Notes under the pieces: generated by a model
Told to the model about the DNA's origin: nothing
The model's database searches: none
The model's input: the letters and a program-made list of their open reading frames with translations, nothing else
In this document: in pieces, positions 1-13,485 of the stretch
Numbering within the stretch: the stretch's first letter is position 1
How the letters are laid out: each line of letters opens with the position of its first letter
Translations under genes and position numbers: made by a program
Source of the DNA: a virus
Taxonomy: Duplodnaviria > Caudoviricetes
IMG/VR virus record: IMGVR_UViG_3300010011_000078
Location: 1-33,176 of that record
Strand: one strand, 5' to 3'
Length of the DNA: 33,176 bases

Positions 1-396
1 TTATTTGTTTTGCTTTTCTTTCAATTCATTAGCGAAAACAAGCACTTTTGCCTGATTCATAGCATTAAGTTCAGCAAATATGTTCAAGAGTTCTATTTCA
101 TTAGCGGTCAAAAATCTTTCTGACCCGTTGATAATAGTTACCGGCGCATGAGCGTGTCCAATAATTCCGTTATTTGTATGAACATTACCCGTCACAACTT
201 CCTGTCCTCCAGCAAGATAGTCAACTGACACCCCTATTATTTCAGCCGCTTTAATCAGGTTAGGTCCTTTAGGATCGGTTTTCCCGTTCGCCCAATCTGA
301 AACTGTCGACGCAGAAACCCCCAGTTTTTTAGCTAATTCCTTCTGACTTATCCCTTTTTGTTTTGCCACCAAAACAAGTCTTTCTCCTGGTTTCAC
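1..396 (-). CDS. cI-like phage repressor, XRE/Cro-C1 HTH
   Basis: N-terminal HTH (GISQKELAKKLGVSASTVSDWANGKTDP...IGVSVDYL); divergent from the early operon. GTG at 396 chosen over 408 because AGGTGG lies 8 nt upstream. No S24 peptidase motif evident. Confidence 0.9.
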   Translation of the reverse strand: MKPGERLVLVAKQKGISQKELAKKLGVSASTVSDWANGKTDPKGPNLIKAAEIIGVSVDYLAGGQEVVTGNVHTNNGIIGHAHAPVTIINGSERFLTANEIELLNIFAELNAMNQAKVLVFANELKEKQNK

Positions 397-420
397 TAAA
401 CACACCACCTTAACTAAAAA

Positions 421-585
421 AATTCGGTTAATACTATTGACAATTCAAGTAAACCGAATTATAATAAGGTTAACCCTATGAAATTAGGGCAAACAAAATC
501 AGCCAACAGAAAAGCAAACATCTGTCGGATTCGGTTTAACTTATAAAATAGGTCTTCATCAACTCTATTATATAAGTAAACCGAA
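421..585. promoter_or_regulatory. Four candidate repressor operator half-sites (TAAACCGAA / TTCGGTTWA)
   Basis: AAGTAAACCGAA at 447-458 and 574-585; reverse-orientation TTCGGTTAA at 423-431 and TTCGGTTTA at 530-538. Two of the sites lie inside promoter spacers. Confidence 0.7.
437..465 (+). promoter_or_regulatory. Rightward (lytic) sigma-A promoter
   Basis: TTGACA 437-442, 17-nt spacer, TATAAT 460-465: perfect consensus. Confidence 0.9.
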
Positions 586-595
586 GCAAAGTCAA
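567..595 (-). promoter_or_regulatory. Leftward sigma-A promoter, convergent with the rightward promoter
   Basis: Minus strand TTGACT (595-590), 17-nt spacer, TATAAT (572-567). Confidence 0.8.
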
Positions 596-613
596 CAGAA
601 AGGAGGTTAAAAA

Positions 614-784
614 ATGGAAAAATACCTGACCTGTGAGCAGGTCGCCGAAAGATACGGCGTCAAGGTTATAACCGTTTGGGCCTGGATACGGGAAAAGAAA
701 TTGCCGGCAATCAGGATCGGTAAAGGTTACCGTATCAGACCCAAAGACTTGGAAGCGTTCGAAGCGGCCAGGAAAACGAAATAA
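614..784 (+). CDS. Excisionase/Cro-like HTH protein (HTH_17 type), 56 aa; absent from ORF track
   Basis: AGGAGG RBS at 601-606; MEKYLTCEQVAERYGVKVITVWAWIREKKLPAIRIGKGYRIRPKDLEAFEAARKTK fits the Xis-like wHTH pattern. Confidence 0.88.
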   Translation: MEKYLTCEQVAERYGVKVITVWAWIREKKLPAIRIGKGYRIRPKDLEAFEAARKTK

Positions 785-798
785 AAGGGGGTTTGCAC

Positions 799-975
799 AT
801 GGGACAAGCACGAACGATCAACATTCCGGACCACCAGCTTAACCGCCTGGCCCAGCATTTGATCAATGTAGTTCCTGAATATTTCAAAAATCCGGCCAAT
901 AATAGCCGGTTTAGAGAATGGGAAAGCCAAAAAATTTCTGAAGGGAGGAAAAAACGTGAGGTCAAGCAAGTGTAA
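799..975 (+). CDS. Small phage hypothetical protein
   Basis: AAGGGGG RBS, ATG at 799, tightly packed in the operon. Confidence 0.7.
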   Translation: MGQARTINIPDHQLNRLAQHLINVVPEYFKNPANNSRFREWESQKISEGRKKREVKQV

Positions 976-1438
976 TCGTTGCGGCAGAGCCTTAAAAAAT
1001 CCTGTTTATATCGATCTTGGATATGGCAAAGTCTGTGCCGCAAAAATGGGAATTTCGGTTCCCTCAAAGAAGAGCGCCGGCGACGCAGAAGAACCGGTAA
1101 GAAAACTGGGTTCATTTGTCCCCTTTAAGGGCGACATCATTTGTCGGAGAACCGAACACGGGCCGGAAGTCAATATCCCCCATAGATTTGTTAAACACAG
1201 TCCCGCCGGCCTGGAATGGGGTTATGGTGGTTCTGGCCCTGCCGATCTGGCATTAAACGCCCTGGCAATGTATATCGGGCGAGAAAAGGCGGAAGAAAAC
1301 GGATTTTATCAGGAATTTAAGCGGGAATTTATTGCGACCATGCCAGCCGAAGGCGGCGTTATTAAGCGCGAACAGGTATTATCCTGGCTTAAAGAAAAAG
1401 GTTGTGATCTCAATGAAAAGACTTTGGCAGAAACATAA
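956..1438 (+). CDS. DUF6011-like Zn-finger fused to a DUF6166-like domain
   Basis: N-term CNRCGRALKNP..IDLGYGKVC; C-term HSPAGLEWGYGGSGPADLALNAL; GGGAGG RBS. Confidence 0.75.
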   Translation: MRSSKCNRCGRALKNPVYIDLGYGKVCAAKMGISVPSKKSAGDAEEPVRKLGSFVPFKGDIICRRTEHGPEVNIPHRFVKHSPAGLEWGYGGSGPADLALNALAMYIGREKAEENGFYQEFKREFIATMPAEGGVIKREQVLSWLKEKGCDLNEKTLAET

Positions 1439-1721
1439 AAAGAAAGTCTTCGGTTCTTTCGCCTTCCTTATGTTCTTTCTCGTGTACGGGACTGTTGGAG
1501 CGGTTGAATGTGACACGCTTTCCCTTTTCGAAGGAACTATCAGGTCAATAATCTTCCTGGCCTTGTGGGTCCTCTTTACTTACCTGGCCGGAGGTTTTGA
1601 AAATTATGCGGAAAGGGGGGACAAGCAGTATGAAGTACAAGCCGAAGACGCTTTCACCTGTTCAGGTCGCGCAGGTCGTCAAAGCCCTTCTACTTCTGGG
1701 CGAAGAACATATCACCATTGA
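1413..1721 (+). CDS. Small membrane protein (two hydrophobic helices)
   Basis: ATG 1413 overlaps the upstream gene end; hydrophobic VFGSFAFLMFFLVYG and IIFLALWVLFTYLAG. Confidence 0.6.
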   Translation: MKRLWQKHKKKVFGSFAFLMFFLVYGTVGAVECDTLSLFEGTIRSIIFLALWVLFTYLAGGFENYAERGDKQYEVQAEDAFTCSGRAGRQSPSTSGRRTYHH

Positions 1722-1791
1722 AGCAATAGAAAAGGACCGCTACGCAATCACCACAAAGCGCAACGGTCCTAACCCTAAAGAAAAGAATTAA
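1630..1791 (+). CDS. Small hypothetical protein (53 aa)
   Basis: AAGGGGGG RBS before ATG 1630. Confidence 0.6.
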   Translation: MKYKPKTLSPVQVAQVVKALLLLGEEHITIEAIEKDRYAITTKRNGPNPKEKN

Positions 1792-1801
1792 GTTTTATTT
1801 C

Positions 1802-1830
1802 ATTCTATCGAATTAAAGGAGGTTTTTCAA
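1802..1830 (-). promoter_or_regulatory. Antisense sigma-A-like promoter
   Basis: Minus strand TTGAAA (1830-1825), 17 nt, TAGAAT (1807-1802). Confidence 0.55.
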
Positions 1831-1881
1831 GCGAAGCTTTTAACATTAGAGCCTACAGAAAGGCAGAAAGGAGAGAACACC

Positions 1882-2115
1882 ATGCAAGCAACAGCACAGC
1901 TTATAAGAGATGAAGCGGCCATATTCCTGGGGAGAAGACCGACAGATGAAGAGATGAAATGGGCACTACCAAGGGCGCAGAAAAAACTCGCCTGGATCAT
2001 CGAAAGAGAAGGCGACGCAGGCGGAGTAAGACAGCAGCCCTGGTACCTGGGGAAGCTGGTAGAAGAGGCAATCGTGGAAGAGAAATTCTCACAGTATACC
2101 AGATGCATGTTGTAA
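1882..2115 (+). CDS. Phage hypothetical protein
   Basis: AAGGAG RBS, 77-aa ORF in operon orientation. Confidence 0.75.
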   Translation: MQATAQLIRDEAAIFLGRRPTDEEMKWALPRAQKKLAWIIEREGDAGGVRQQPWYLGKLVEEAIVEEKFSQYTRCML

Positions 2116-2164
2116 AAGAAAGCAAAATGAAAACGGCTTGAAAGCCGCAATAAATACCAACTCC

Positions 2165-2194
2165 ATTATATCACTGGATATGGTGGGGTGTCAA
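2165..2194 (-). promoter_or_regulatory. Antisense sigma-A promoter with extended -10
   Basis: Minus strand TTGACA (2194-2189), 18 nt, TGaTATAAT (2173-2165). Confidence 0.65.
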
Positions 2195-2209
2195 GGGAGG
2201 ATGATTTGA

Positions 2210-2425
2210 ATGGCAGTAAATCTGGATAGATTTGTACAAGGTCTCCCGGACCCGCAAGAAGCTGAGGTAAAAGCATACTGTGATGGTTGCGGAGGCGAAA
2301 TATACGAAGGTGAAGAAGTATATGTTGTTGAGGGAGAGATACTGCATGCCGAGTGGGAATGCTTGGTGCAGTATATAGACCCTGAGGTCAAGACAATAGA
2401 AGAAGCGCTGGGGGTGGAAGCATGA
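2210..2425 (+). CDS. Small Zn-ribbon-like phage protein
   Basis: GGGAGG RBS; CDGCGGEIYEGEEVY...H..EC pattern commonly seen upstream of yqaJ/recT. Confidence 0.8.
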   Translation: MAVNLDRFVQGLPDPQEAEVKAYCDGCGGEIYEGEEVYVVEGEILHAEWECLVQYIDPEVKTIEEALGVEA

Positions 2426-3363
2426 CCGCAGTAGAACTTGCAAAAACTTTGGACATGCCAAGAGAAGAATGGCTTGAGCTCCGCAAAAAGGGCATAGGCG
2501 GCTCCGATGCTGCCGCGATCGTCGGCCTTGACCGCTACCGCTCACCTTTTGATGTGTATGCGGACAAGCTGGGGCTAAAGCCTGAAATCCCTGACAACGA
2601 GGCCATGCGGCAGGGGAGAGACTTGGAGCAATATGTGGCTGAAAGGTTCATGGAAGCTACCGGGAAGAAGGTCCGCCGGCGAAATGCTATGCTCCAGCAC
2701 CCTGAATATCCGTTCATGATTGCGGATATAGACCGCTGGGTGGTTGGCGAGAACGCGGGACTTGAATGCAAAACTACAAGTGTTTTAAATAGGGCCAAGT
2801 TTTCTCAAGGAGAATTCCCTCCGAATTATTATGTTCAATGCATGCACTACATGGCCGTTACCGGTGCAGAACGCTGGTATCTTGCTGTGTTGGTACTAAA
2901 CAAAGCTTTTCATGTTTTCACTATTGAACGAGACGAAGCAGAGATAAATGCACTAATTGAAGCCGAAAAAGACTTTTGGGAAAACCATGTCTTAAAACAA
3001 ATTCCACCGGCTCCGGACGGAAGCGAAGCCACATCAGAAATTATCAAGCAGCTATTCCCTGAGGCCAAAGAAGCCACAGAAACCGCTCTGTTCGGGTACG
3101 AGGGCAAGATTCAGCAGTACCTGGAGCTGGATACCAAAGTGAAGGAGCTTGAATGTGAGCGCGACAAGCTCAAACAGGAGCTTCAACTGGCGATGGCAGA
3201 TGCCGAAATTGGCAGAGCACAGGGATATATCGTTGAGTGGAAAAACCAAGTCCGGCAAACGTTGGACACTCAAAAACTTAAAAAAGAACAGGCAGAGATA
3301 TATCAAAAATATCTCAAGCCGGCTCAAACCGTCAGAATGTTCAAAATCAAGGAGGTATCATAA
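2422..3363 (+). CDS. yqaJ: YqaJ-family (lambda Exo-like) viral recombination exonuclease
   Basis: WLELRKKGIGGSDAAAI, GRDLE, ADIDR, GLECKT, YYVQCMHYMAVTG motifs. Confidence 0.95.
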   Translation: MTAVELAKTLDMPREEWLELRKKGIGGSDAAAIVGLDRYRSPFDVYADKLGLKPEIPDNEAMRQGRDLEQYVAERFMEATGKKVRRRNAMLQHPEYPFMIADIDRWVVGENAGLECKTTSVLNRAKFSQGEFPPNYYVQCMHYMAVTGAERWYLAVLVLNKAFHVFTIERDEAEINALIEAEKDFWENHVLKQIPPAPDGSEATSEIIKQLFPEAKEATETALFGYEGKIQQYLELDTKVKELECERDKLKQELQLAMADAEIGRAQGYIVEWKNQVRQTLDTQKLKKEQAEIYQKYLKPAQTVRMFKIKEVS

Positions 3364-4203
3364 ATGGCTAATCAAAAAGGATTAATTCAGCAGGCTACAA
3401 AGCAGGAAAGCAAGACAACCGCTCTGACAAGGCCTATTGATAAATTAAAGAACATCTTGGCCGCCCAGAGCGTCCAGGAACAATTCCAGTCAGTCCTGAA
3501 AGAGAACGCAGGGGCATTTGTGGCCAGCATTATTGACCTATACAACACCGATAGAACCCTGCAGATGTGTGACCCTAAAAACGTTGTCATGGAGGCACTC
3601 AAGGCCGCCAGCCTAAAACTACCCATCAACAAGCAACTCGGATTTGCCTGGATAGTACCATATCGGGACGGGAGGACCGGGCAGTATATTCCGACGTTCC
3701 AGCTTGGTTACAAGGGATATATCCAGCTCTGCATGAGAACCGGAGCCTACCGGTACATAAATGCTGATGTGGTCTACGAGGGCGAACTGGTCAAATGCGA
3801 CAAGCTGACCGGCGAAATCGAGATCGACCCAACCAAGAGGACCAGTGACAAGAAGATCGGATATTTCGCCTTCATTGAGACTCTGAACGGCTTCCGAAAA
3901 ACGCTTTTCATGACGGTCGAGGAAGTCACCAAACACGCCCAGCAGTACAGCAAGAGCTACGGGAGCAAAAACAGCGTTTGGGCAACAGATTTTGACGCTA
4001 TGGCTTTGAAGACCTGCCTGCGGCTGTTGCTGTCCAAGTACGGTGTCATGAGTGTCGAGATGCAGAGGGCGTATATCGATGACAGCGCTGATACCGTCGC
4101 ACTGGCTGACGAAAGGATTGCTGATGACACCTTTGATGGCGAAGTGATTGAGGCTGAAGCGGTGGAAGTGACTGACATGCCGGAGGAAGCGGCTGAAGAT
4201 TGA
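3364..4203 (+). CDS. recT: RecT-family single-strand annealing recombinase
   Basis: LKLPINKQLGFAWIVPY, FQLGYKGYIQL, VYEGE, W..DFDAMALKT motifs; acidic tail; paired with yqaJ. Confidence 0.95.
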   Translation: MANQKGLIQQATKQESKTTALTRPIDKLKNILAAQSVQEQFQSVLKENAGAFVASIIDLYNTDRTLQMCDPKNVVMEALKAASLKLPINKQLGFAWIVPYRDGRTGQYIPTFQLGYKGYIQLCMRTGAYRYINADVVYEGELVKCDKLTGEIEIDPTKRTSDKKIGYFAFIETLNGFRKTLFMTVEEVTKHAQQYSKSYGSKNSVWATDFDAMALKTCLRLLLSKYGVMSVEMQRAYIDDSADTVALADERIADDTFDGEVIEAEAVEVTDMPEEAAED

Positions 4204-4215
4204 GGCACATAAAAC

Positions 4216-4377
4216 ATGGGCGGCGGGCGTGGTGGGAACACGCAATCCCAGGGATTGAAAATAGGCGTAAAGACGCCGGGAGAAAACCGTATTCACCAAC
4301 ACTTTTCGGTAAAGTGGTCCGCAACGCAGACAAAAAACTAATGTGCAACCGATCCGGTTCAAATCCGGACCGCCCAT
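4216..4377 (+). ncRNA. tRNA-like structured RNA with a large insert replacing the anticodon arm
   Basis: Acceptor stem TGGGCGG 4217-4223 / CCGCCCA 4370-4376; D-like arm GCGTG-GTGGGAA-CACGC 4227-4243; T arm TCCGG-TTCAAAT-CCGGA 4353-4369; 109 nt between D and T arms; no encoded CCA. Confidence 0.75.
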
Positions 4378-4385
4378 TAAATTGA

Positions 4386-4440
4386 ACCCATTGGCCCCGA
4401 ATCGATGAACTTGGGTACCGGTAGGCGGGAGGCCCGGGGC
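4386..4440 (+). ncRNA. Putative structured RNA element (multi-stem or pseudoknot)
   Basis: GCCCCG 4394-4399 / CGGGGC 4435-4440; internal GGC-GGGAG-GCC hairpin; ACCCA 4386-4390 complementary to TGGGT 4412-4416. Confidence 0.45.
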
Positions 4441-4479
4441 GTTATGTATAGATGATGAGAATATATGTGATTTTTAAAA

Positions 4480-4526
4480 CAGCCTGGTCCAGCGGCTTGT
4501 GCCAGCCGGGGCCGCTGGGAAGGCTG
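4480..4526 (+). other. Long GC-rich hairpin abutting the RBS of the next gene
   Basis: CAGCCT/AGGCTG plus CCAGCGGC/GCCGCTGG stems; no U-tract; GGAGG begins at 4526. Confidence 0.55.
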
Positions 4527-4543
4527 GAGGGAGAAAAAGAAAA

Positions 4544-4828
4544 ATGTCTGAGATAGATGCAAGAACAAAAGCTATAGGTATTATTTCTGGCGGAAGAGTA
4601 CAAGCCTTAGAAGATGCCGGATTGATGATTGTAGATAAACAGGAGATAGACAGGCTTAAAGAAAAGCTAAATGCGGTGTTGCAAGATTTTTATCAATATG
4701 TTCAAGGCGATAAAGAAATCTGCGCTTTTTGCTTACACGATTATGAATGTGAACCTGGAGAAACGATATGTGGAGCAACTTATAAAGGCTTTAAATGGAG
4801 AGGTTTAAATGAGAGGGAGGACTTATGA
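4544..4828 (+). CDS. Phage hypothetical protein with Cys-rich C-terminus
   Basis: ATG 4544 after GGAGG; C-term CAFC.H...C......C......FKWRG. Confidence 0.7.
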   Translation: MSEIDARTKAIGIISGGRVQALEDAGLMIVDKQEIDRLKEKLNAVLQDFYQYVQGDKEICAFCLHDYECEPGETICGATYKGFKWRGLNEREDL

Positions 4829-5364
4829 CATTAAAGGAACAATGTGCAAGTTGTAAGGCTAATTGGGATGGCCATTGTATCAATGGGAATGATACATGGA
4901 AATCAATTAATTCTTGCAACGAAGTGATTTGCGAAGATTATGAGAAGGTGGGGGGCAGGATGGCAATGAATAATGATTTAAGAGAAATAGCAATACGAAC
5001 AGATTTGGGCGATGCATGGGAAAATCCGTTCTCGCATGAGGACGTTGCACAAGCAATAAGCACAATAAGATATATCAACAGTAAAGACTTGACAGAAAAT
5101 ACATATGACCTGTTGACCGCATTGGAAGCGCTCCATCGACAACAACCAAAGCCAGTTAAGCTGAAATACAAAGAAGGAGAAGATGCTGCGTTAATAACCT
5201 GTCCTGTTTGTTGGCACTCAACTATTATTAATTTTAAATTGCACAAACAATTTTATCCTGAATGGTACTGCAAACATTGTGGACAACGACTATTCTGGGG
5301 CGATGAACCGGCCAAAGCAGGCCGAGGAAATGGCAAAGCTCTGCTACTCGGAGCGGATGTGTGA
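4825..5364 (+). CDS. Cys-rich hypothetical protein with C-terminal Zn ribbon (possibly two fused genes)
   Basis: GGAGG RBS; CASC...C...C N-terminus; CPVC...YCKHCGQRLFW C-terminus; internal G-rich RBS + ATG near 4960. Confidence 0.65.
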   Translation: MTLKEQCASCKANWDGHCINGNDTWKSINSCNEVICEDYEKVGGRMAMNNDLREIAIRTDLGDAWENPFSHEDVAQAISTIRYINSKDLTENTYDLLTALEALHRQQPKPVKLKYKEGEDAALITCPVCWHSTIINFKLHKQFYPEWYCKHCGQRLFWGDEPAKAGRGNGKALLLGADV

Positions 5365-5391
5365 AGTTGTTAATGTGGAGGCGGGGTCAGA

Positions 5392-6162
5392 ATGCCAAAC
5401 AGAATCATCAAAGAATCAATATGTACAAGCGACACCATAGACCAATTATCTTGGTTTGAGGAAGTGTTTTTCTATCGCCTCCTGGTTAATTGCGATGATT
5501 ATGGGAGGATGGATGCAAGGCCGGCGATTCTGAAGGCGAAGCTGTTTCCTCTTAAAAGTGTTACCGAAAAGCAGATTTCTGATGCTTTAAATAAGTTATC
5601 GACGGTAGGTATTGTAGCCCTATATGAGTATGATGGGAGACCGTACCTGCAATTGGTAACTTGGGAAAAGCATCAGACTGTACGGAATAAAAAAGGTAAA
5701 TATCCTGCGGTTGACGGAAGAGAGGAAACGACTGCTTCAGAAAATGTGCGGTTGATTTCAGTTGAATGCAATTGCAATCAATTGAATGCAATTGCGTCTT
5801 TAATCCAATCCAATCCAATCCAATCCGAATCCAATACGAATCCGAATCCGAATCCAAATCCAAATACAAAGGACTCCGTTGTCGTCCCTGGTGAAATTCT
5901 TTCGGAATGGAACGCTTATGTTGATATGCGGAAAAAAATTAAAAAGCCAATGACTGATAAAGCTGCTTTATTAGCTTTGAAAAAACTAAATGAGCTTGCA
6001 CCTGACGACTATGAGAAACAGAAAGCTATCCTCAACCAGTCGGTATTTAATTCTTGGCAGGGGTTATTTCCTCTGAAAGGTGGTTATGATGAAAAGACTA
6101 ATCGACATGATACCGGAACAATACCGGCAAGCAGCAAACCAAAGTACGGGGATGTCCTATGA
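5392..6162 (+). CDS. Phage replication initiator / replisome organizer
   Basis: MPNRIIKESI...LLVNCDDYGR...LKAKLFP N-terminal wHTH; NP-repeat linker; C-term W..YVDMRKKIKKPMT...QSVFNSWQGLF; directly upstream of a DnaC-like gene. Confidence 0.85.
   Translation: MPNRIIKESICTSDTIDQLSWFEEVFFYRLLVNCDDYGRMDARPAILKAKLFPLKSVTEKQISDALNKLSTVGIVALYEYDGRPYLQLVTWEKHQTVRNKKGKYPAVDGREETTASENVRLISVECNCNQLNAIASLIQSNPIQSESNTNPNPNPNPNTKDSVVVPGEILSEWNAYVDMRKKIKKPMTDKAALLALKKLNELAPDDYEKQKAILNQSVFNSWQGLFPLKGGYDEKTNRHDTGTIPASSKPKYGDVL
5762..5867. repeat. Iteron-like repeats inside the initiator gene (probable phage origin)
   Basis: TTGAATGCAATTGC at 5762-5775 and 5782-5795; (AATCC)x5 at 5802-5826; GAATCC/AAATCC hexamers to ~5867. 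Confidence 0.65.
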
Positions 6163-6916
6163 AGATTATCTAAAAATGATGTGTGATTTTCAAAATCAGA
6201 CTGTAGGGCATTTAACCGGACATGATTGCGACAAATGTAAAAACAAAGGTTTAATTTTTTTCGTCGAGAACGGCGAGGAAAAATGCCGCGAATGCGAATG
6301 TATGACTATTCGCAGAAATTTACAGCGCATTAAGGAAAGCGGGCTGGCTGCTGTAATCGAAAAATATACTTTCGATACATATCAAACGCCGGAGCTGTGG
6401 CAACAGGCTATCAAGCAGAGCGCGCTTGAATTTCTCGACGTTAAAGGCAAGTGGTTTTATATCGGCGGGCAGTACGGATCAGGAAAGACACACATCTGCA
6501 CTGCAATTGTCGGTGAGTTTATCAACCGCGGATTGAACGCCAGATACATGATGTGGCTGGACGATAGCAAGCGGTTAAAAGCCTGTATCAATGATGACGA
6601 AGAATATTACCGCTTAATACACCCGCTCAAAACCACTGATGTGCTATATATCGATGATTTTTTTAAGGCACAGGCAGGTCCGGACGGCAAAATGCTCCCT
6701 CCTACTCCTGCGGATGTAAGCTTGGCATTTGAGATTATCAATTACCGTTACATGCAGCCGGACGCAATCACAATTATATCCAGCCAGTACGATATTGACG
6801 GTCTGCTTGATATTGATGGAGCACTCGGCAGCCGGATATATGAGCGAACAAAAGGGTTTTGCAAAATTATAGGTCCGGACGAGAAAAAGAATTATCGAAT
6901 GAGGGATGTAATATGA
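6086..6916 (+). CDS. DnaC/IstB-like AAA+ helicase loader
   Basis: CDKC...CECM Zn site, Walker A GQYGSGKT, Walker B VLYIDD, IINYRY, SRIYE. Confidence 0.9.
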   Translation: MMKRLIDMIPEQYRQAANQSTGMSYEDYLKMMCDFQNQTVGHLTGHDCDKCKNKGLIFFVENGEEKCRECECMTIRRNLQRIKESGLAAVIEKYTFDTYQTPELWQQAIKQSALEFLDVKGKWFYIGGQYGSGKTHICTAIVGEFINRGLNARYMMWLDDSKRLKACINDDEEYYRLIHPLKTTDVLYIDDFFKAQAGPDGKMLPPTPADVSLAFEIINYRYMQPDAITIISSQYDIDGLLDIDGALGSRIYERTKGFCKIIGPDEKKNYRMRDVI

Positions 6917-7269
6917 CTGAAGCGCAACATCAAGCAGCACTATTCAACTGGGCTTGGTTAGTCCGCAACCGATATCCGGAACTTGCGCTGCTCTATCACA
7001 TCCCGAACGGCGGGAGCAGAAATAAAGCCGAAGCCGCTAATTTGAAACGTCAAGGTGTAAAGCCGGGCGTACCGGATTTGTGCTTACCTGTACCAAGAGG
7101 TCAATATCACGGGCTATACATAGAGCTCAAGACCGAGAAAGGACGGACAAGCACGGCGCAGGATTGGTGGATTCGGGAGTTAAATGCACAGGGTTATTTT
7201 ACTGAGGTGTGCCACGGTTGGCAGTCGGCTGTAAGGGCGATTGAGTGGTATCTGGGGTTGATAAAATGA
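6913..7269 (+). CDS. VRR-NUC domain nuclease (Holliday-junction resolvase-like)
   Basis: HIPNGG, GVKPGVPDL, LYIELKTEKGRTS..Q..W motifs; ATG 6913 overlaps the upstream stop. Confidence 0.92.
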   Translation: MTEAQHQAALFNWAWLVRNRYPELALLYHIPNGGSRNKAEAANLKRQGVKPGVPDLCLPVPRGQYHGLYIELKTEKGRTSTAQDWWIRELNAQGYFTEVCHGWQSAVRAIEWYLGLIK

Positions 7270-7589
7270 AGCAGGAAGAATTCGAACGCCTTGCCGCCAA
7301 ATCCGAACCGCTCCCGGATAACCTTACCCTACCCGAACAATGGCTGTACTTATCCCTGCGGGCGTTATATCGGGAATTTAAAGCTGGTGCAGTATCGAAA
7401 GAACAGGCAGCAAAAGAAAAACGGGCTATATTAGACCAGTACGAACTTGCAAAGCTACATTACTCCGCATACCAGCAAACAACCGAGAGGACGAACAGGT
7501 ACGGGTACTTGTTTGCAGAAGCAGAAAAGAGCGGTTGTGATGTGTGCAGGAAAATTGTGAGGATACTGGATGGGAGGATGTCTTTATGA
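7266..7589 (+). CDS. Phage hypothetical protein
   Basis: ATGA overlap with the upstream gene; 107 aa. Confidence 0.75.
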   Translation: MKQEEFERLAAKSEPLPDNLTLPEQWLYLSLRALYREFKAGAVSKEQAAKEKRAILDQYELAKLHYSAYQQTTERTNRYGYLFAEAEKSGCDVCRKIVRILDGRMSL

Positions 7590-7627
7590 AACTTATCTAC
7601 GTCGCCCACCCTTACGGTGGCAAATGA
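7586..7627 (+). pseudogene. Truncated start of a DUF4406/nucleoside-deoxyribosyltransferase-like gene
   Basis: GGGAGG RBS and ATGA overlap, then MKLIYVAHPYGGK-stop; IYVAHPY is a typical first strand of this family. Confidence 0.5.
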
Positions 7628-7853
7628 GCGCGCTGGCCGCCAGTACGGCGAAGACGGATACGGGGACGATTACCTGGTCCTACTGACAGCAGACACAGTC
7701 CGCGAAATGGCATTTTCGGAATATACCCTTTTGGGAAGCCAGCAGGCTGTGTGACAAGCTAAACAAAGAAGGCAAAGGGAGTCAATATATAGACTTTGCC
7801 ATCAAGACGACTGGAACCAGCAAGTCAGATTTATGTAAGGATGGAGGTAAAAT

Positions 7854-8261
7854 ATGAACCTTGTAATACTTATGGGACGTACAACCAAAGACATCGATTT
7901 GAGATATACTGCGCAATCATACATACCCGTTGCCCGGTTCACCCTTGCGGTGGACAGGCCATATACAAAGCAGGGAGAAGAGAAGAAAACAGACTTCATT
8001 TCATGCGTTGCATTTGGGAGATTAGCTGAAAACCTTGAGAAATATATTAGAAGGGGTAGAAGGATTGTCATAGAAGGACGTATCCAGGTTGACAGTTACG
8101 ACAGGGATGATAGGAGTAAAGGCTACAGCACAAGCGTCATTGTTGAAAGGTTCCATTTTGCAGATAGTAAACCGGGCATACAAGCGCAGGAAGTCAGTCA
8201 GGCAGAGCCAGAAATGGATGGCTTTGAACCTTTAGATTCGGATGATGATCTCCCCTTCTGA
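7854..8261 (+). CDS. ssb: Single-stranded DNA-binding protein
   Basis: MNLVILMGR..KD..LRYT, FTLAVDR, TDFI.CVAFG, acidic DDDLPF tail. Confidence 0.97.
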   Translation: MNLVILMGRTTKDIDLRYTAQSYIPVARFTLAVDRPYTKQGEEKKTDFISCVAFGRLAENLEKYIRRGRRIVIEGRIQVDSYDRDDRSKGYSTSVIVERFHFADSKPGIQAQEVSQAEPEMDGFEPLDSDDDLPF

Positions 8262-8270
8262 GGTGAGAAT

Positions 8271-8396
8271 ATGCAGGCGTATGACGTAAAAAGAAAGCGG
8301 GTGGTTAATATTGAACGCAGCGAAGGCGACGTCATAGTGGCATATTCACTACCGGGAGAGCCGGGAATAAGGATGACAAACAGGTATCTTGCTTAA
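8271..8396 (+). CDS. Short ORF (41 aa), possibly truncated
   Basis: GAGGTGA RBS; MQAYDVKRKRVVNIERSEGDVIVAYSLPGEPGIRMTNRYLA. Confidence 0.4.
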   Translation: MQAYDVKRKRVVNIERSEGDVIVAYSLPGEPGIRMTNRYLA

Positions 8397-8458
8397 CTAT
8401 ACAACGGTTGAAGGGACCGGAGGAAAAGGTGGAGATTGAGCTGGAGGAGGTATCTTAA

Positions 8459-8638
8459 GTGAGGAGTTGTAATTTGTGTAAATACTTTATTCCTGCGTGG
8501 GGAGGCAGTAAAACGAGTATGTCGCAGCCTGCATGGTGTTTTAAAAGAAGTATTTGTCTAACAAACGAATTTATACAAAAAGGATGCAAGGAGTGCGTCG
8601 AGTTTAAGGAGGTAGAAGCAGATGCAACAGGAAACTAA
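8459..8638 (+). CDS. Small Cys-rich protein (59 aa)
   Basis: GGAGGAGG RBS, GTG start; MRSCNLCKYF...WC...C...C..C.EF. Confidence 0.6.
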   Translation: MRSCNLCKYFIPAWGGSKTSMSQPAWCFKRSICLTNEFIQKGCKECVEFKEVEADATGN

Positions 8639-8777
8639 AAAAATACAGACACTTCATGAAAGAGAACTTAAACTGCTAGAGTTTATCCGAAGACTTGGCT
8701 ACGGAGAGATTACAATCAGGGTTCAAGATGGGCTGCCAGTGATAATAGAAAAGGCCACGGAGAAGGTGAAATTATGA
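8622..8777 (+). CDS. DUF2292/YezD-like small protein (51 aa); absent from ORF track
   Basis: AAGGAGGT RBS; LLEFIRRLGYGEITIRVQDGLPVIIEKATEKVKL matches the family pattern (YG.I.I.VQDG..V.IE..EK.KL). Confidence 0.8.
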   Translation: MQQETKKIQTLHERELKLLEFIRRLGYGEITIRVQDGLPVIIEKATEKVKL

Positions 8778-8923
8778 AATACTGTAAAGATTGTAAGTAC
8801 TATATACCAAAGGCCAGGTACCAATTTGAGATGCGAGATGCAAGAATGAGGGAATGCAAGCATTATTCTATTTGCAACCGGATTATAAGGCTGGTAAAAA
8901 AAGAATGTAATTGCGAAGCATGA
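8774..8923 (+). CDS. Small Cys-rich protein (49 aa)
   Basis: ATGA overlap; MKYCKDCKYY...CKH..IC.RI. Confidence 0.55.
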   Translation: MKYCKDCKYYIPKARYQFEMRDARMRECKHYSICNRIIRLVKKECNCEA

Positions 8924-8943
8924 TAGGCAATATTAAACTGTAT

Positions 8944-8996
8944 GCTGACCGGAAAACCGGAGGCACTTCGAGAAATTGGGGTGACTCTTTTACTTT
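8944..8996 (+). promoter_or_regulatory. Overlapping antiterminator/terminator hairpins upstream of the late activator
   Basis: GC-TGA-CCGG-AAAA-CCGG-AG-GC (8944-8964) shares GAGGC with hairpin GAGGCACTTCGA...TTGGGGTGACTC (8960-8987), which is followed by TTTTACTTT. Confidence 0.6.
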
Positions 8997-9011
8997 ATAG
9001 GGGGTGTGAAT

Positions 9012-9434
9012 GTGGGAATCCTAGAAAGACGCATATACAAAAAGATTGAGTACTATTTATACCACTACCACCAAATTCGTAAAGAGATAGAACAAGAAAA
9101 GGAAATTATTATCCAGTCAGGTGGCCGTGACCTCACCGAATGGGGAGGCGGTATCAGCTACCATTCGGATCCGACTGCGAATAAGGCTATTAAACTTACT
9201 AGGCCAGAATTGCTAGAAAAAGAAAAGTGGCTCAAGGTGGTTGAAGGTACTATCCAGCACTTCGAGGGCACAGAAAAAGGGCGGCTCCTCCAGAAAAAGT
9301 ATTTTGACCAGCTGGGAGAGCGACATATATGCAAGGAATTACACATCGAAAGGACAACTTACTATCGATGGCGAGAAGAAATTGTGCTGTATACCGCCTT
9401 ACTAGCGGCGCAATATGGTCTTATAAAGTTTTAA
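9012..9434 (+). CDS. RinA/ArpU-family late transcriptional activator
   Basis: IEYYLYHY, SDPTANKAIKL, C-terminal sigma-4-like HTH (KKYF...ICKELHIERTTYYRWR); last early gene before the packaging module. Start could be 9006. Confidence 0.88.
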   Translation: MGILERRIYKKIEYYLYHYHQIRKEIEQEKEIIIQSGGRDLTEWGGGISYHSDPTANKAIKLTRPELLEKEKWLKVVEGTIQHFEGTEKGRLLQKKYFDQLGERHICKELHIERTTYYRWREEIVLYTALLAAQYGLIKF

Positions 9435-9471
9435 AAAATTCAGAATTTTTGGCCAATGAATGTGTTACAAT
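9434..9471 (+). promoter_or_regulatory. Palindromic site + extended -10, candidate activator-dependent late promoter (copy 1)
   Basis: AAAAATTC-A-GAATTTTT perfect palindrome at 9434-9450; TGtTACAAT at 9463-9471. Confidence 0.55.
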
Positions 9472-9836
9472 GATAGCGGGAATATTATGATATTTGGGTG
9501 TCATAGCAGAACAGATGCAATACAGCATAACTCGGCTGATGAAATATTTGAGGGTTAGATTGATGAGCTGTTGAGGAGTTGCATGGTTCATATATTAGTA
9601 GCCAGGGTAGATGGGGGGTCAGAGAAGTATATTAGTCGTTTGCTTATAAAATGGGATAACAAAGGCAGAATTGAAAGTAGAAAAAATATAGAAGAAGGAG
9701 TGGTTACGTGTATTCTCACCGGTTCTAAGGGGTTCATATGCAGGCTTGATGTGGGAAAAGTATGTTGTTACGTGAACTTAGATGGCGTAGCCTTGTATCT
9801 GATAAATTTTGACATAGATGTATAATTAAGTCAAGC

Positions 9837-9865
9837 TTAAAGTTGTAAGCAAAATATGCTATAAT
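9837..9865 (+). promoter_or_regulatory. Promoter of the methylase/nuclease cassette
   Basis: TGcTATAAT at 9857-9865, weak -35 TTAAAG 17 nt upstream. Confidence 0.55.
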
Positions 9866-9892
9866 AGATTGAGGGAAGAACGAGGTGAGATT

Positions 9893-10735
9893 ATGAAAAG
9901 AAATCCACTTGTTGCTCCTGTGTTGAAGTGGGCAGGAGGGAAGCGGCAATTACTAAAAGACATAAAGAAGCATATACCAGAGAAATTTTCAACTTATTAT
10001 GAGCCCTTTTTAGGTGGTGGGGCTGTTTTATTCGAACTACAACCTAGTAAGGCTGTAGTGAATGATATAAATGAGGAATTGATGAATGTTTATTTAGTAA
10101 TTCGGGATCATGTTGAAGAACTCATTGAAGAATTAAAAAAGCACGAAAGAAAAAATAGTGAAGAATATTATTATGAAATAAGAGAACTAGATAGAGACAA
10201 GAGAAAGTATGAGCAATTAAGTAACATAGAAAAAGCTGCGAGAATAATTTATTTAAACAAAACATGTTATAACGGTTTGTTTCGTGTAAATTCACAAGGT
10301 CAGTTTAATGTTCCTTATGGGAGATATAAAAATCCAGATATTGTGAATGAAGTTACATTAAGAGCAGTAAGTAATTATTTTAATAAAGCTAAAATAACTT
10401 TTAAATGCGGAGATTTTGAAGAAGCAGTTAAGGGGGCAAGAGAGGGTAGTTTTGTGTATTTTGATCCGCCTTATGATCCCGTTAGTGATACAAGCAGTTT
10501 TACAGGTTATGATATAAATGGGTTTTACAAGGAGGAACAGATAAGGCTTAAGGAATTATGTGATAAATTAAATAAAAAAGGTGTAAAGTTTCTACTTTCA
10601 AACTCAGCAACAGATTTTATTTTGGACCTGTATAAAGATTATAATATAACAATAGTCCAAGCTAATAGGGCAATTAATTCAAAAGCGGACAAAAGAGGAA
10701 AAGTTGATGAAGTGCTGGTGAAGAATTATGAGTGA
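9893..10735 (+). CDS. dam: DNA adenine methyltransferase, Dam/DpnM (D12) family
   Basis: KWAGGK, YYEPFLGGGAV, NDIN, NGLFRVNSQGQFNVPYG, catalytic FVYFDPPY, LSNS; GAGGTGA RBS before ATG 9893. Confidence 0.95.
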   Translation: MKRNPLVAPVLKWAGGKRQLLKDIKKHIPEKFSTYYEPFLGGGAVLFELQPSKAVVNDINEELMNVYLVIRDHVEELIEELKKHERKNSEEYYYEIRELDRDKRKYEQLSNIEKAARIIYLNKTCYNGLFRVNSQGQFNVPYGRYKNPDIVNEVTLRAVSNYFNKAKITFKCGDFEEAVKGAREGSFVYFDPPYDPVSDTSSFTGYDINGFYKEEQIRLKELCDKLNKKGVKFLLSNSATDFILDLYKDYNITIVQANRAINSKADKRGKVDEVLVKNYE

Positions 10736-12008
10736 GACAAAGAATGATATTGCATGGGAACGAATTTTTAAGAAATATAGAATATTAGAGAAAATAAAGA
10801 AAAATGGGGCTTTTGAAATAACGTCAGGGCAAATAAATGAGTTTAGAGAAGCAAGGTTAATGACAAAATTTGATCACCGAAAAAATTTACCGAAGATTTT
10901 TGAAGAAAATAATCTTTCTATTCTTCCTATTACTAGAGGTAGTTATTTAATTACGCAGTTTAAGGCTTATCATAGGCTTGAGGAAAAAGAAACAGAAATA
11001 ATCAAGATTCCATTTCCTACTTATATTGAAAGTATTGATTATGAAAACATAACAAGCGAGGCTGCGGCTTTAAACTGTGCGTATGTTTCAGGTATATTGG
11101 CTGATTTTATTGAGGATGAAGAAATAGTTCCAACAGTTACAGGTCGAATGAGTTCTGATGCGTTTTGTTTTTATATTAATACTTATTCGGGGTCTAAGTT
11201 TAAAGTTAATGTTACTAATGCTCAAATTGAGATAGATGGTGGATATGAAGGGCTGGGAACCTTTTCTTTAATTGAAGCGAAAAACTCGTTATCAGATGAT
11301 TTTATAATACGACAAATATATTACCCTTATAGGTTATGGCATGATAAAATTAACAAAAAAGTTAAGCCAATATTTATGACTTACTCTAACGGTATTTTTA
11401 CTTTTTATGAGTATGAGTTTCAAGACCCTGAAGATTATAATTCTCTTACTTTAGTAAAACAAAAAAAATATAGCATAGAGGAAACAGAGATTGGGCTTGA
11501 TGACATAATAGAGATCTACAAAAGGACAAAAATTATAAATGAACCAGAAGTTCCATTTCCACAAGCAGATTCATTTGAAAGGATAATTAATCTTTGCGAG
11601 CTTTTAAATGAATCAGAGTTGACTAGAGATGAAATAACAACAAACTATGATTTTGACTCTAGGCAAACGAATTATTATACAGATGCAGCTAGATACTTGG
11701 GATTAGTACATAAGCGTAAAGAAGGTAGAGAGGTAATATTTTCGTTGACAGAAGAGGGGGAAAAATTATTTAAACTGAAATATAAGCCAAGACAATTAAA
11801 ATTTGTTGAATTAATTTTGTCCCACAAAGTTTTTAGAGAAGTTTTTGAATTGTGTCTGAAAAATGGAAAAATGCCAGATAAACATGAAGTAGTGAAGATT
11901 ATGAGATACAGCAATTTGTATAAAATAGAATCCGAGAAAACATTTTATAGGCGTGCTCAAACTATAATGAGTTGGATTAAATGGATATTAGAATTAACTA
12001 GATTGTAG
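10728..12008 (+). CDS. Putative type II restriction endonuclease (PD-(D/E)xK; DUF6996/DUF6997-like)
   Basis: Overlaps the methylase stop; QIEIDGGYEG...LIEAKN nuclease motif; REARLMTKFD N-terminus; C-terminal wHTH-like region (RQTNYYTDAARYLGLV). Confidence 0.75.
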   Translation: MSETKNDIAWERIFKKYRILEKIKKNGAFEITSGQINEFREARLMTKFDHRKNLPKIFEENNLSILPITRGSYLITQFKAYHRLEEKETEIIKIPFPTYIESIDYENITSEAAALNCAYVSGILADFIEDEEIVPTVTGRMSSDAFCFYINTYSGSKFKVNVTNAQIEIDGGYEGLGTFSLIEAKNSLSDDFIIRQIYYPYRLWHDKINKKVKPIFMTYSNGIFTFYEYEFQDPEDYNSLTLVKQKKYSIEETEIGLDDIIEIYKRTKIINEPEVPFPQADSFERIINLCELLNESELTRDEITTNYDFDSRQTNYYTDAARYLGLVHKRKEGREVIFSLTEEGEKLFKLKYKPRQLKFVELILSHKVFREVFELCLKNGKMPDKHEVVKIMRYSNLYKIESEKTFYRRAQTIMSWIKWILELTRL

Positions 12009-12028
12009 TACATAGCCAAAGATTGTAC

Positions 12029-12068
12029 AAAAGTTCGGTACTTTTTAAACGGATTTATATGGTAGTAT
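12029..12068 (+). promoter_or_regulatory. Near-palindromic site + extended -10, candidate late promoter (copy 2)
   Basis: AAAAGTTC-G-GTACTTTT at 12029-12045 (13/17 identical to 9434-9450); TGgTAGTAT at 12060-12068. Confidence 0.55.
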
Positions 12069-12098
12069 AGTAGTATAGAATTGTATACTTTCCTCTTC

Positions 12099-12123
12099 AG
12101 CCCGGTTGCCCCCGCCGGGCTTT
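12099..12123 (+). other. GC-rich hairpin (weak terminator or leader structure)
   Basis: AGCCCGG 12099-12105 / CCGGGCT 12115-12121, short T run. Confidence 0.5.
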
Positions 12124-12150
12124 GAAAATCTTTCCTGTGTATGCTATAAT
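12122..12150 (+). promoter_or_regulatory. Moron promoter for the ltp-like gene
   Basis: TTGAAA 12122-12127, 17 nt, TGcTATAAT to 12150. Confidence 0.75.
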
Positions 12151-12184
12151 AAAGCAAAAATATTTCAAAAAAGGGGAAAACAAA

Positions 12185-12895
12185 ATGTCGGACAAACAGA
12201 AAAAAACACTTTATAAAAAGTGGTGGTTTTGGCTTATCGTGATTGTATTCATAGTTGCGATTGCTAGTCAGGGGGGCAATGATGGTAAAGAAGAAGTTGC
12301 TAGTGGTAACGTATCTGAACAGATAGAAAACAATGTTGAAAATAATGCTGAGACAGATGAGATAGCAGAAGAAGTTGAAGAGCCTAAAAATGCAGAAAAA
12401 ACTGAAAGGGTAGAGGAACCAACAGAATCAACGATTGTAGACAAAGAAGTAGAGGCAACGAACGAAACCTTATCGCAGAAAAACGCAGTAAGAAAAGCAA
12501 AAGAATATTTGAGCGTTATGGCTTTCTCTAAAGAGGGGTTAATAAAACAATTAGAATTTGAAGGCTTTAGTAATGAAGATGCTACGTATGCTGTAAATCA
12601 AATAGACGTTGACTGGAAAGAACAAGCTGTAAAAAAAGCAAAAGAATATTTAGGCGTTATGGCTTTTTCAAAAAGCGGTTTAATAAAACAACTGGAGTTT
12701 GATGGTTTCAGCAATGAAGAAGCCACATATGCAGCAGAACAAGTGAATGCAGATTGGAAGGAGCAGGCAGTAAAGAAAGCGAAAGAATATTTAAAACTTA
12801 TGGGTTTTTCTAGAAAAAGTTTGATAGAGCAGCTAGAGTTTGACGGGTTCACCGAAGAAGAGGCTACGTATGCTGCAGATCAAGTAGGATTATAA
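12185..12895 (+). CDS. ltp: Ltp-family surface protein (superinfection exclusion), three Ltp repeats
   Basis: KKWWFW + TM anchor, acidic linker, three 47-aa repeats AV.KAKEYL..M.FS...LI.QLEF.GF..E.ATYA; own promoter and terminator. Confidence 0.88.
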   Translation: MSDKQKKTLYKKWWFWLIVIVFIVAIASQGGNDGKEEVASGNVSEQIENNVENNAETDEIAEEVEEPKNAEKTERVEEPTESTIVDKEVEATNETLSQKNAVRKAKEYLSVMAFSKEGLIKQLEFEGFSNEDATYAVNQIDVDWKEQAVKKAKEYLGVMAFSKSGLIKQLEFDGFSNEEATYAAEQVNADWKEQAVKKAKEYLKLMGFSRKSLIEQLEFDGFTEEEATYAADQVGL

Positions 12896-12910
12896 ATAAG
12901 CAAATATATA

Positions 12911-12936
12911 AAGGCATCCGAAAGGATGTCTTTTTT
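12911..12936 (+). terminator. Intrinsic terminator after ltp
   Basis: AAGGCATCC-GAAA-GGATGTCTT then TTTT. Confidence 0.85.
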
Positions 12937-12987
12937 CATGCATAATAACAAAATATAAAATAACCGACTAGGGTAGGTGAGGTGATG

Positions 12988-13485
12988 ATGGCATTAACCG
13001 AAAAACAGAAGAGATTTGTCGAAGAGTATTTAATTGACCTGAACGCAACTCAGGCTGCCATTAGAGCTGGTTATAGCGTGAAAAGGGCATCTGAGATTGG
13101 GTATCAACTACTACAGAAAACTACAGTATCTCATGCCATATCTAAAGCCATGGCTGAGCGCTCTCGTCGGACTGGTATAAGCCAGGATAGAGTGCTTCAG
13201 GAGCTGGCCAAGATTGCATTTGTTAATGCAACGGATGTAATCAATATGGACGAAGCAACTATTCGGGGTGATGCCAACCGTGAAGATACAGCTGCTATTG
13301 CCAGCGTAAAGGTTAAGACTATTCCCACGGAATCTGGAGAGATTGTGGAACGAGAGGTCAAGACATACGACAAAATAAAAGCCCTAGAGCTTCTGGGCAA
13401 GCACTTGGGCATGTTCACTGATAAGCTTAACGTCAACGCCGAAATGGCCGTCAAGATAGTAGATGATATAGATGGCGAAGATTAG
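12988..13485 (+). CDS. terS: Terminase small subunit
   Basis: LTEKQKRFVEEYLIDLNATQAAIRAGYS; DKIKALELLGKHLGMF. Confidence 0.97.
   Translation: MALTEKQKRFVEEYLIDLNATQAAIRAGYSVKRASEIGYQLLQKTTVSHAISKAMAERSRRTGISQDRVLQELAKIAFVNATDVINMDEATIRGDANREDTAAIASVKVKTIPTESGEIVEREVKTYDKIKALELLGKHLGMFTDKLNVNAEMAVKIVDDIDGED

Follow-up and report, generated by a model that had tools for sequence, protein, structure and literature searches.

The question that this locus raises is why a temperate tailed phage carries, directly after its recT gene, an RNA element with the elbow of a tRNA and no means of decoding. The window, by which we mean the whole stretch of 33,176 nucleotides that was analysed, encodes a repressor, an excisionase-like protein, RecE, RecT, a replication initiator, a DnaC-like loader, terminase, and head and tail proteins. 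Its host is likely clostridial, to judge by sequence kinship and sampling, because among the 120 RecT relatives listed a single one, that of Thermoclostridium stercorarium (83%), carries an organism name and the runs that contain part of the stretch (20 of the 23 listed) come mostly from digesters. The surroundings of the element are as follows.

2422-3363, + strand: recE-like exonuclease gene (phrog_434, E 2.8e-109)
3364-4203, + strand: recT (phrog_148, E 9.6e-75), with its stop codon 13 nt before the element
4383-4527, + strand: conserved intergenic GC-rich hairpin module, more variable than the element (folding z −1.61)
5392-6162, + strand: replication initiator gene (phrog_5810, E 6e-26), preceded by two small genes

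The module at 4383-4527 has no Rfam match and also occurs without a tRNA shell, directly after recT in L017 and L023. It is present in L004, L013 and other loci as well, with many variant contigs in RNA runs. Elsewhere in the window, 9869-12008 encodes a Dam-type adenine methyltransferase and, after it, a DUF6996/DUF6997/DUF7226 protein of 426 aa, a pair that is possibly a restriction-modification-like moron, and 12122-12895 encodes an Ltp-type superinfection-exclusion lipoprotein with three 141-nt repeats.

The element itself consists of the following parts.

4217-4376, + strand: whole tRNA-shell RNA element, 160 nt, delimited by its sequence, by 83 distinct family members and by close relatives, whose flanks diverge from the first acceptor base
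4217-4223, + strand: 5' strand of the acceptor stem, paired with 4370-4376
4224-4226, + strand: linker (positions 8-9), CGG in the window versus CG in 82 of 83 members
4227-4243, + strand: D arm, a 5-bp stem and a 7-nt loop containing GG
4244-4256, + strand: stunted hairpin at the place of the anticodon arm, with three constant pairs and a 3-nt loop
4257-4352, + strand: cargo in an enlarged variable region, with hairpins at 4264-4277 and 4300-4316
4348-4352, + strand: tail of the cargo, complementary to the loop at 4306-4310; a tail helix is enriched across the family
4352, + strand: A, the near-constant position 48 of the family (the last insert base is A in 79 of 83)
4353-4369, + strand: T arm with a canonical 7-nt loop (TTCRAAT in 75 of 83 members) and a covarying stem
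4370-4376, + strand: 3' strand of the acceptor stem, read from the sequence, with changes on both sides in relatives
4377, + strand: discriminator U, directly 3' of the element, with no CCA

Every stem named in the preliminary description was found where that description had placed it. Its remark that no CCA is encoded was confirmed in the window and extends to the family, in which 0 of 83 members encode one. It had also expected no full match in searches for tRNAs and RNA families, and ARAGORN made no call over the element, nor did Rfam return a match there at the gathering threshold or at E<=10. Two features set the window copy apart: it begins with a U1-A72 pair, and its CGG linker is private, the extra G being missing from the RNA-run contigs in three of four runs.

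Folding of the 162-nt stretch gave a z of −2.78, and 0 of 200 shuffles folded as well. The pair probabilities were 0.76-1.0 for acceptor pairs 1-6, 0.22 for acceptor pair 7 and 0.85-0.98 for the T arm, and were also high for the inner hairpins. The D stem received a probability of 0.01-0.03; it is absent from the predicted minimum-energy fold, and a fold forced to contain it was 4 kcal/mol worse. Because energy folding prefers the alternative, the D-like stem of the preliminary description needed comparative support, which was provided by L238 and L251, relatives found without using the D arm, in which three of the five pairs change on both sides. Acceptor pairs 1 and 2 change on both sides in close relatives, and all seven pairs do so in the wider family. 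The stem AATCC/GGATT could be retained only in part, since three of its pairs are constant and the outer two are broken in 9 of the 13 versions with the window insert. Compensatory changes, whose absence would have spoken against the element, were found in the acceptor, T and D stems of the shell, but the window cargo is without any covarying pair. Its TCGGT/ACCGA pseudoknot and two inner hairpins did not vary in 12 aligned copies, and so are neither supported nor refuted by covariation. A scan anchored on the pseudoknot returned 11 loci, two of them copies of the element and the rest unrelated.

Cargo-based scans gave 38 matches, 29 of them with the D arm and an upstream flank, and yielded 20 distinct versions: 13 with the window cargo and seven with a second cargo, which has one hairpin and the tail in common with the first. 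These 20 versions show 18 flank-cargo-flank combinations, built from 11 upstream and nine downstream flank types; the 13 versions of the window insert are spread over 10 upstream flank types, and both cargoes were found with three upstream and two downstream types. The combinations indicate that exchange of cargo and flanks takes place within the conserved arms. Acceptor mismatches (one or more) are present in nine of the 20 versions, as would in part be expected from crossovers inside the element. In three relatives the element is 97.5-99.4% identical, compared with 77-90% for the adjoining recT DNA, and the conserved cargo includes unpaired A-rich stretches. The hairpins of the second cargo type show paired double changes between L080 and L153, in one comparison read by eye. 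The constancy of the window cargo, in which no pair covaries, could thus be due to a recent spread by recombination.

The entry to the wider family was L019, a recT relative that shares the D arm and has a covarying T arm, but whose 71-nt insert is entirely unlike that of the window. A D-arm scan returned 94 viral and 70 genome loci. The T arm and acceptor stem close in 75 of 96 viral and 21 of 70 genome D-arm matches versus 4 of 3340 shuffled controls, and the genome matches that do not close these stems look like chance pattern hits. This left 83 distinct members, or 72 after shared inserts were collapsed; because the D arm was the search key, its constancy among the 83 is circular. Among the 72, both sides depart from the commonest pair in 256 of 864 stem cells. 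G-U combinations outnumber A-C ones by 29 to 5 in the stems, which points to an RNA on the + strand, in a ratio that is biased because the finder counted G-U as a pair. The T-loop and D-loop residues of the RNA elbow are retained across members, the insert ranges from 14 to 195 nt, the discriminator is mixed (A 47, T 20, C 10, G 6) and there is no fixed acceptor identity.

We conclude that this 83-member tRNA-shell group is a real, uncatalogued family conserved by shape. Whereas the preliminary description took a 109-nt structured domain as the defining feature, it is the shell that defines the family, and that domain is one of many exchangeable cargoes. Rfam searches of the window and relatives, by gathering score and by E-value, returned no family for this D-arm type, with sub-threshold tRNA or tRNA-Sec scores in two members only; the motifs of Weinberg 2017 (PMC5737381) are represented in the same Rfam scan. 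Blastn with the element and two relatives found no full-length match in cultured phages (50,697 phage records for the element), and a variant D arm had 0 matches in viral contigs. No description of the family was found in the literature searched, in which subscription papers are sparsely represented; the alignments of Fremin 2023 (PMC10690425) lie outside that search and may include an unnamed candidate model of the family. Members occur in phages and prophage-like regions of several phyla, and the genome records with closed members are assigned, by labels that can be wrong for MAGs, to Chloroflexota, Geobacteraceae, Desulfarculaceae, Sporomusaceae, Veillonellaceae, Planctomycetota and others; the Chloroflexota include an isolate, Bellilinea caldifistulae GOMI-1, with member L159. 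One complete phage holds two copies with different cargoes, and a repeat check of positions 1-13000 and a T-arm scan of the whole window revealed no second copy in the window.

Several further observations concern the diversity of the family. Fragments of further tRNA-like arms (a second T or D arm) lie within the cargoes of L055, L071, L073 and L087 and point to growth by nesting. Long cargo subfamilies of 120-140 nt share motifs under different acceptor stems (L075/L081/L088/L118; L095/L101/L104/L201; L190/L199/L215). Damaged copies were also seen: L275 (~770-876) has no D arm and its cargo lacks the first half, and L058, L060 and L142 keep the D arm and have lost the T arm to an ORF. In L009, a 140-kb phage contig, positions 2197-2473 give a tmRNA-like match just under the Rfam gathering score.

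It might be proposed that the element is a relic or a DNA-level device, that is, a decayed tRNA or att scar, or a pair of arms serving as crossover points for the neighbouring annealing proteins in the manner of PeSL cassettes. The versions of the close group do show crossovers within the arms. In T4-type phages, PeSL cassettes are described as repeated promoter and terminator units at which modules are shuffled (PMC2839356), and the element resembles them, as far as that account goes, in being a short conserved intergenic cassette at module-shuffling points. The neighbours of the wider family, tested on 130 hand-picked ORFs out of 398 listed at 61 loci, include a recombination or replication gene at 26 loci, a large terminase at five and an integrase at two. 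However, the acceptor and T stems change sequence and keep their pairing, so that homology falls, contrary to the requirements of a crossover site. The residues of the elbow are also kept, and four of the five genomes tested have a single copy of this D arm. The conserved features of the element are those of a tRNA shape and not those of PeSL; in the window there is neither a + strand promoter or terminator at the element nor a second copy, and a terminator-like site on the minus strand (4277-4264) is no more than chance would give (1 found, 0.8 expected). We regard the relic or crossover reading as very improbable.

A function in decoding has also to be considered. The element has a 7-bp acceptor stem on a 5-bp T stem with the T-loop consensus, but a canonical anticodon arm (5 bp, 7-nt loop, U33) is present in 0 of 72 members, and neither ARAGORN nor RF00005 matches anything in the window, so that the preliminary description was right to deny that it is a decoding tRNA. 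ARAGORN with the intron option calls many members as intron-containing tRNAs, which could be spliced to decoding tRNAs. Its anticodons (ARAGORN -i) are scattered, however, and the window gets no call; moreover, there is no Rfam intron match, and no joint that skips the insert was seen in the assembled contigs. A translated ORF at 4200-4385, which had been named as a competing explanation, is frameshifted in L248, a locus that shares the upstream flank of the window; neither it nor the minus-strand ORF 3619-4377 has a family match. Spliced tRNA and translated ORF together are scarcely credible. Identity with tmRNA (RF00023) was rejected, as G3-U70 is found in 0 of 72 members and CCA in 0 of 83, and no Rfam or ARAGORN match to tmRNA was obtained in the window. 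The permuted order of a YrlA Y RNA is not found either, since the element reads acceptor 5', D, insert, T, acceptor 3'. With no anticodon loop (0 of 72), the RNA is also poorly suited to the suggested roles of T-box ligand and decoy for anticodon nucleases.

How, then, is the shell built? It had been thought that the anticodon arm was replaced by a structured domain; this is better put as a lost anticodon arm and an enlarged variable arm. The inserts as a group are weakly stable (mean z −0.63, with 52 of 71 below zero and 5 of 71 below −2). A helix of at least 5 bp ending near the T stem is nevertheless predicted in 46 of the 67 inserts of 40 nt or more, compared with a mean of 18 and a maximum of 26 in shuffles. 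This tail helix mostly leaves 2-3 bases unpaired, and its partner strand starts at insert position 10-20 in 19 cases (3.4 in shuffles). In the window the tail helix is plausibly the proposed pseudoknot, which both cargoes of the close group retain without any variation. The first 20 insert bases show no excess of hairpins (18 of 67 versus 23 for shuffles), and the stunted anticodon hairpin of the window is thus not a general feature.

By analogy, the design may be regarded as a class II tRNA that has lost its anticodon arm and whose variable arm houses the cargo. Class II tRNAs (Leu, Ser and Sec) likewise have a helix that closes 2-3 nt before the T stem; unlike them, the family has no anticodon arm and no fixed discriminator. 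In an inferred numbering, its C8/G14 and A48 also differ from the U8/A14 and pyrimidine 48 usual in tRNAs. An origin from class II tRNAs is supported by a sister family with a Leu-type D arm. A scan for that arm with an over-long insert gave at least 121 loci, with an estimated total of about 360 stretches. Among the matches listed, the stems close in 73 of 93 distinct ones and none overlaps an ARAGORN call; of these 73, 71 keep U48, 58 have A73 and 57 have U at −1, whereas one has CCA and one a canonical anticodon arm. The tail helix is present in 47 of the 73 listed, compared with 19 in shuffles. The sister family is larger than the 83-member family.

Many sister members exceed the Rfam tRNA cut-off despite having no anticodon arm. 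Those in L280-L400 often have an identical acceptor/T shell around unrelated inserts of 55-85 nt, and tandem copies are found in L368 (122-234 and 472-577) and L369 (295-406 and 425-553). A recurrent hairpin, which we take to resemble lambda boxB, lies just upstream of Leu-type shells in L035-L040, L057, L281, L316 and L318, and in L057 the same hairpin lies between two shells whose D arms differ in type. Upstream of recE/recT in gut phages, further elements of tRNA shape were seen that have other D arms (L036 ~790-937, L037, L039, L040; L044-L048 ~1770-1900; L065 2193-2330), two of which are called tRNA-Val by ARAGORN.

Transcription of the element is likely from assembled contigs, with the caution that RNA libraries may hold DNA. 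Eight runs were examined: six RNA runs, each of a different study, and one run of unknown kind have contigs over the element, and run X20 has none. Three contigs continue through the element into flanking sequence. No mature end, added CCA or splice joint was seen in the contigs, which by their nature cannot show ends or strand. Among the best-supported rows, variants within the element are few (4225, 4255, 4256 and 4332) compared with the adjacent 4383-4490. The contigs that run into the flanks would suit an RNA that regulates in cis without being cleaved, for example by antitermination or by docking polymerase, ribosome or a protein, with the tRNA elbow as a rigid frame, and most neighbours are on the same strand as the element (256 of 346 larger ORFs near members). 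However, a 7+5 stack with free ends and G+1 is, by established knowledge, an RNase P substrate, and the varied positions of members, which include the end of the recombination module, the region upstream of terminase and tRNA clusters, suit a portable gene better. An uncleaved regulator is in our opinion improbable.

The element does follow recT in the window, as had been described, but this holds for only one of the 13 loci with a RecT of at least 73% identity, and one other has a family member upstream of recE. The distribution indicates that the element is optional and not tied to recT. Of 19 close relatives for which upstream sequence is available, 17 have a stop codon 3-15 nt ahead of the element, whichever gene precedes: RecT, a metal-dependent hydrolase that follows another RecT, a phrog_10048 gene after a RecE homologue, or an acyl carrier protein gene. 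This arrangement would fit a punctuation mark acting in cis, in which the shell directs RNase P/Z cuts or blocks exonucleases, separates the recombination genes from those downstream and tunes mRNA stability, while the insert is filler; the insert lengths of 14-195 nt and the weak mean folding would be understandable on this view. However, the cargo, with its unpaired A-rich stretches, is better conserved than the adjoining recT DNA, and the tail helix is kept across unrelated cargoes. In the wider family, moreover, an upstream stop within 40 nt is found in only 22 of 59, and 16 of 83 members are near a tRNA call (some of them spurious), where no mRNA needs cutting. We therefore consider the punctuation mark an unlikely explanation, but one to be taken seriously.

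The reading to which we give an even chance is that of a carrier RNA excised by RNase P and RNase Z, with a protein-binding cargo. Excision is suggested because the 7+5 stack, the T loop, the D-loop GG and mostly G+1 are conserved, and the features needed for synthetase or ribosome are absent. RNase P and RNase Z act on tRNA-shaped substrates, and RNase P prefers certain bases around its cleavage site; in the 72 members, G is at +1 in 51, A at −2 in 33 and U at −1 in 28. Among the major determinants of RNase P, PMC4201824 names an acceptor stem of 7 bp. Going by tRNA biology, the element would be co-transcribed with the early operon, RNase P would cut its 5' end and RNase Z its 3' end, with possible addition of CCA, and as a side effect the message would be broken between the recombination genes and the downstream small genes. 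A stable small RNA would then probably be released, and our guess is that its cargo binds and decoys a host protein, most probably a defence protein or an RNA-binding protein. A protein-binding cargo under changing selection would fit the sequences, because the cargo varies less than neighbouring coding DNA within a lineage, is replaced between lineages and has no complement in its own flanks or genome. Against the carrier reading, the cargoes are weakly folded on average, and one member has an insert of only 14 nt, so that the cargo is dispensable in some lineages; the U1-A72 start, the D stem disfavoured by energy folding and the persistence of broken acceptor pairs also speak against it.

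The missing complementarity bears as well on an antisense or guide carrier, in which short loops would pair with phage or host RNA in the manner of P1 C4 or P4 CI RNA. These are antisense immunity RNAs, and a variable cargo in an RNase P-type shell resembles what we would expect of an immunity-specific antisense RNA. However, at 53 loci the cargoes had no excess of matches to their own flanks (8.83 versus 8.86 nt), and six cargoes had no excess of complementarity to their own genomes, the longest for the window being 11 nt versus 11.2 for shuffles. The flanks and own genomes were covered by this test, with split sites of 7-8 nt below its detection. Neither an Rfam match to the C4 or CI immunity RNAs nor a long complement was found in the window, and we hold the antisense reading to be highly improbable. 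Going one step beyond the excised carrier RNA, it is possible, although we put it forward only tentatively, that phages across many bacterial phyla use a plug-in cassette, in which a fixed tRNA shell excised and stabilised by the host presents hundreds of different structured cargoes, which recombination in the shell swaps between phages and which serve as decoys against host defence or RNA-binding proteins. If so, it would be an analogue, made of RNA, of the small and variable anti-defence genes that early operons carry.

The element shares features with several known RNAs. In tmRNA, the tRNA-like domain has its anticodon region replaced by a larger domain, a plan that the element shares; it differs in having a true D stem and inserts of 14-195 nt. 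Engineered tRNA-scaffold cassettes carry foreign RNA in a tRNA shell, which host enzymes process and stabilise. They are man-made and hold the cargo in the anticodon stem, whereas the element is natural and holds it apparently in the variable arm. YrlA RNAs, in the account of them in Chen et al. 2014 (PMC4201824), have D, T and acceptor-like arms without decoding, and one is cut by RNase P and gains CCA; their arms, however, are permuted (T, acceptor hairpin, D) and lie in the middle of the RNA, with GNCGAAN0-1G near the 5' end and Ro60 encoded nearby. The element has the canonical arm order, GNCGAAN0-1G is absent from its 5' end, and no Ro60/TROVE match was found among the window proteins scanned (38 + 24 proteins, part of the ORFs).

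The closest precedent is the RNAC of phage T4 (species 1 RNA, 139 nt), which together with RNAD is listed, in the passages on them, among the phage small RNAs of unknown function (PMC3014915, PMC9697503, PMC12685909). RNAC resembles the element in its canonical T arm, its long insert and the absence of an anticodon arm, and it has no Rfam family. It is without this D arm, however, and by our own reading its ends pair at five of seven positions. It sits in the tRNA cluster and, according to those passages, is late, whereas the window of the element has no tRNA by ARAGORN; the same passages make no mention of a family with exchangeable cargoes. There is also no sequence kinship with RNAC or RNAD, as the element had no blastn match in the 50,697 phage records. 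Anticodon-less, tRNA-shaped phage RNAs such as RNAC have been without a known function for decades and seemed to be isolated oddities. In tRNA searches, members are overlooked or wrongly called (the intron option of ARAGORN assigns them arbitrary anticodons), and the tRNA counts of phages can be distorted as a result. If the cargoes are decoys, they would constitute an unmined library of natural RNA ligands. A comparable set is now available, with 83 members that have one D arm and at least 73 that have a Leu-type D arm, and since shell and cargo are separable, swaps of shell versus cargo would test function directly.
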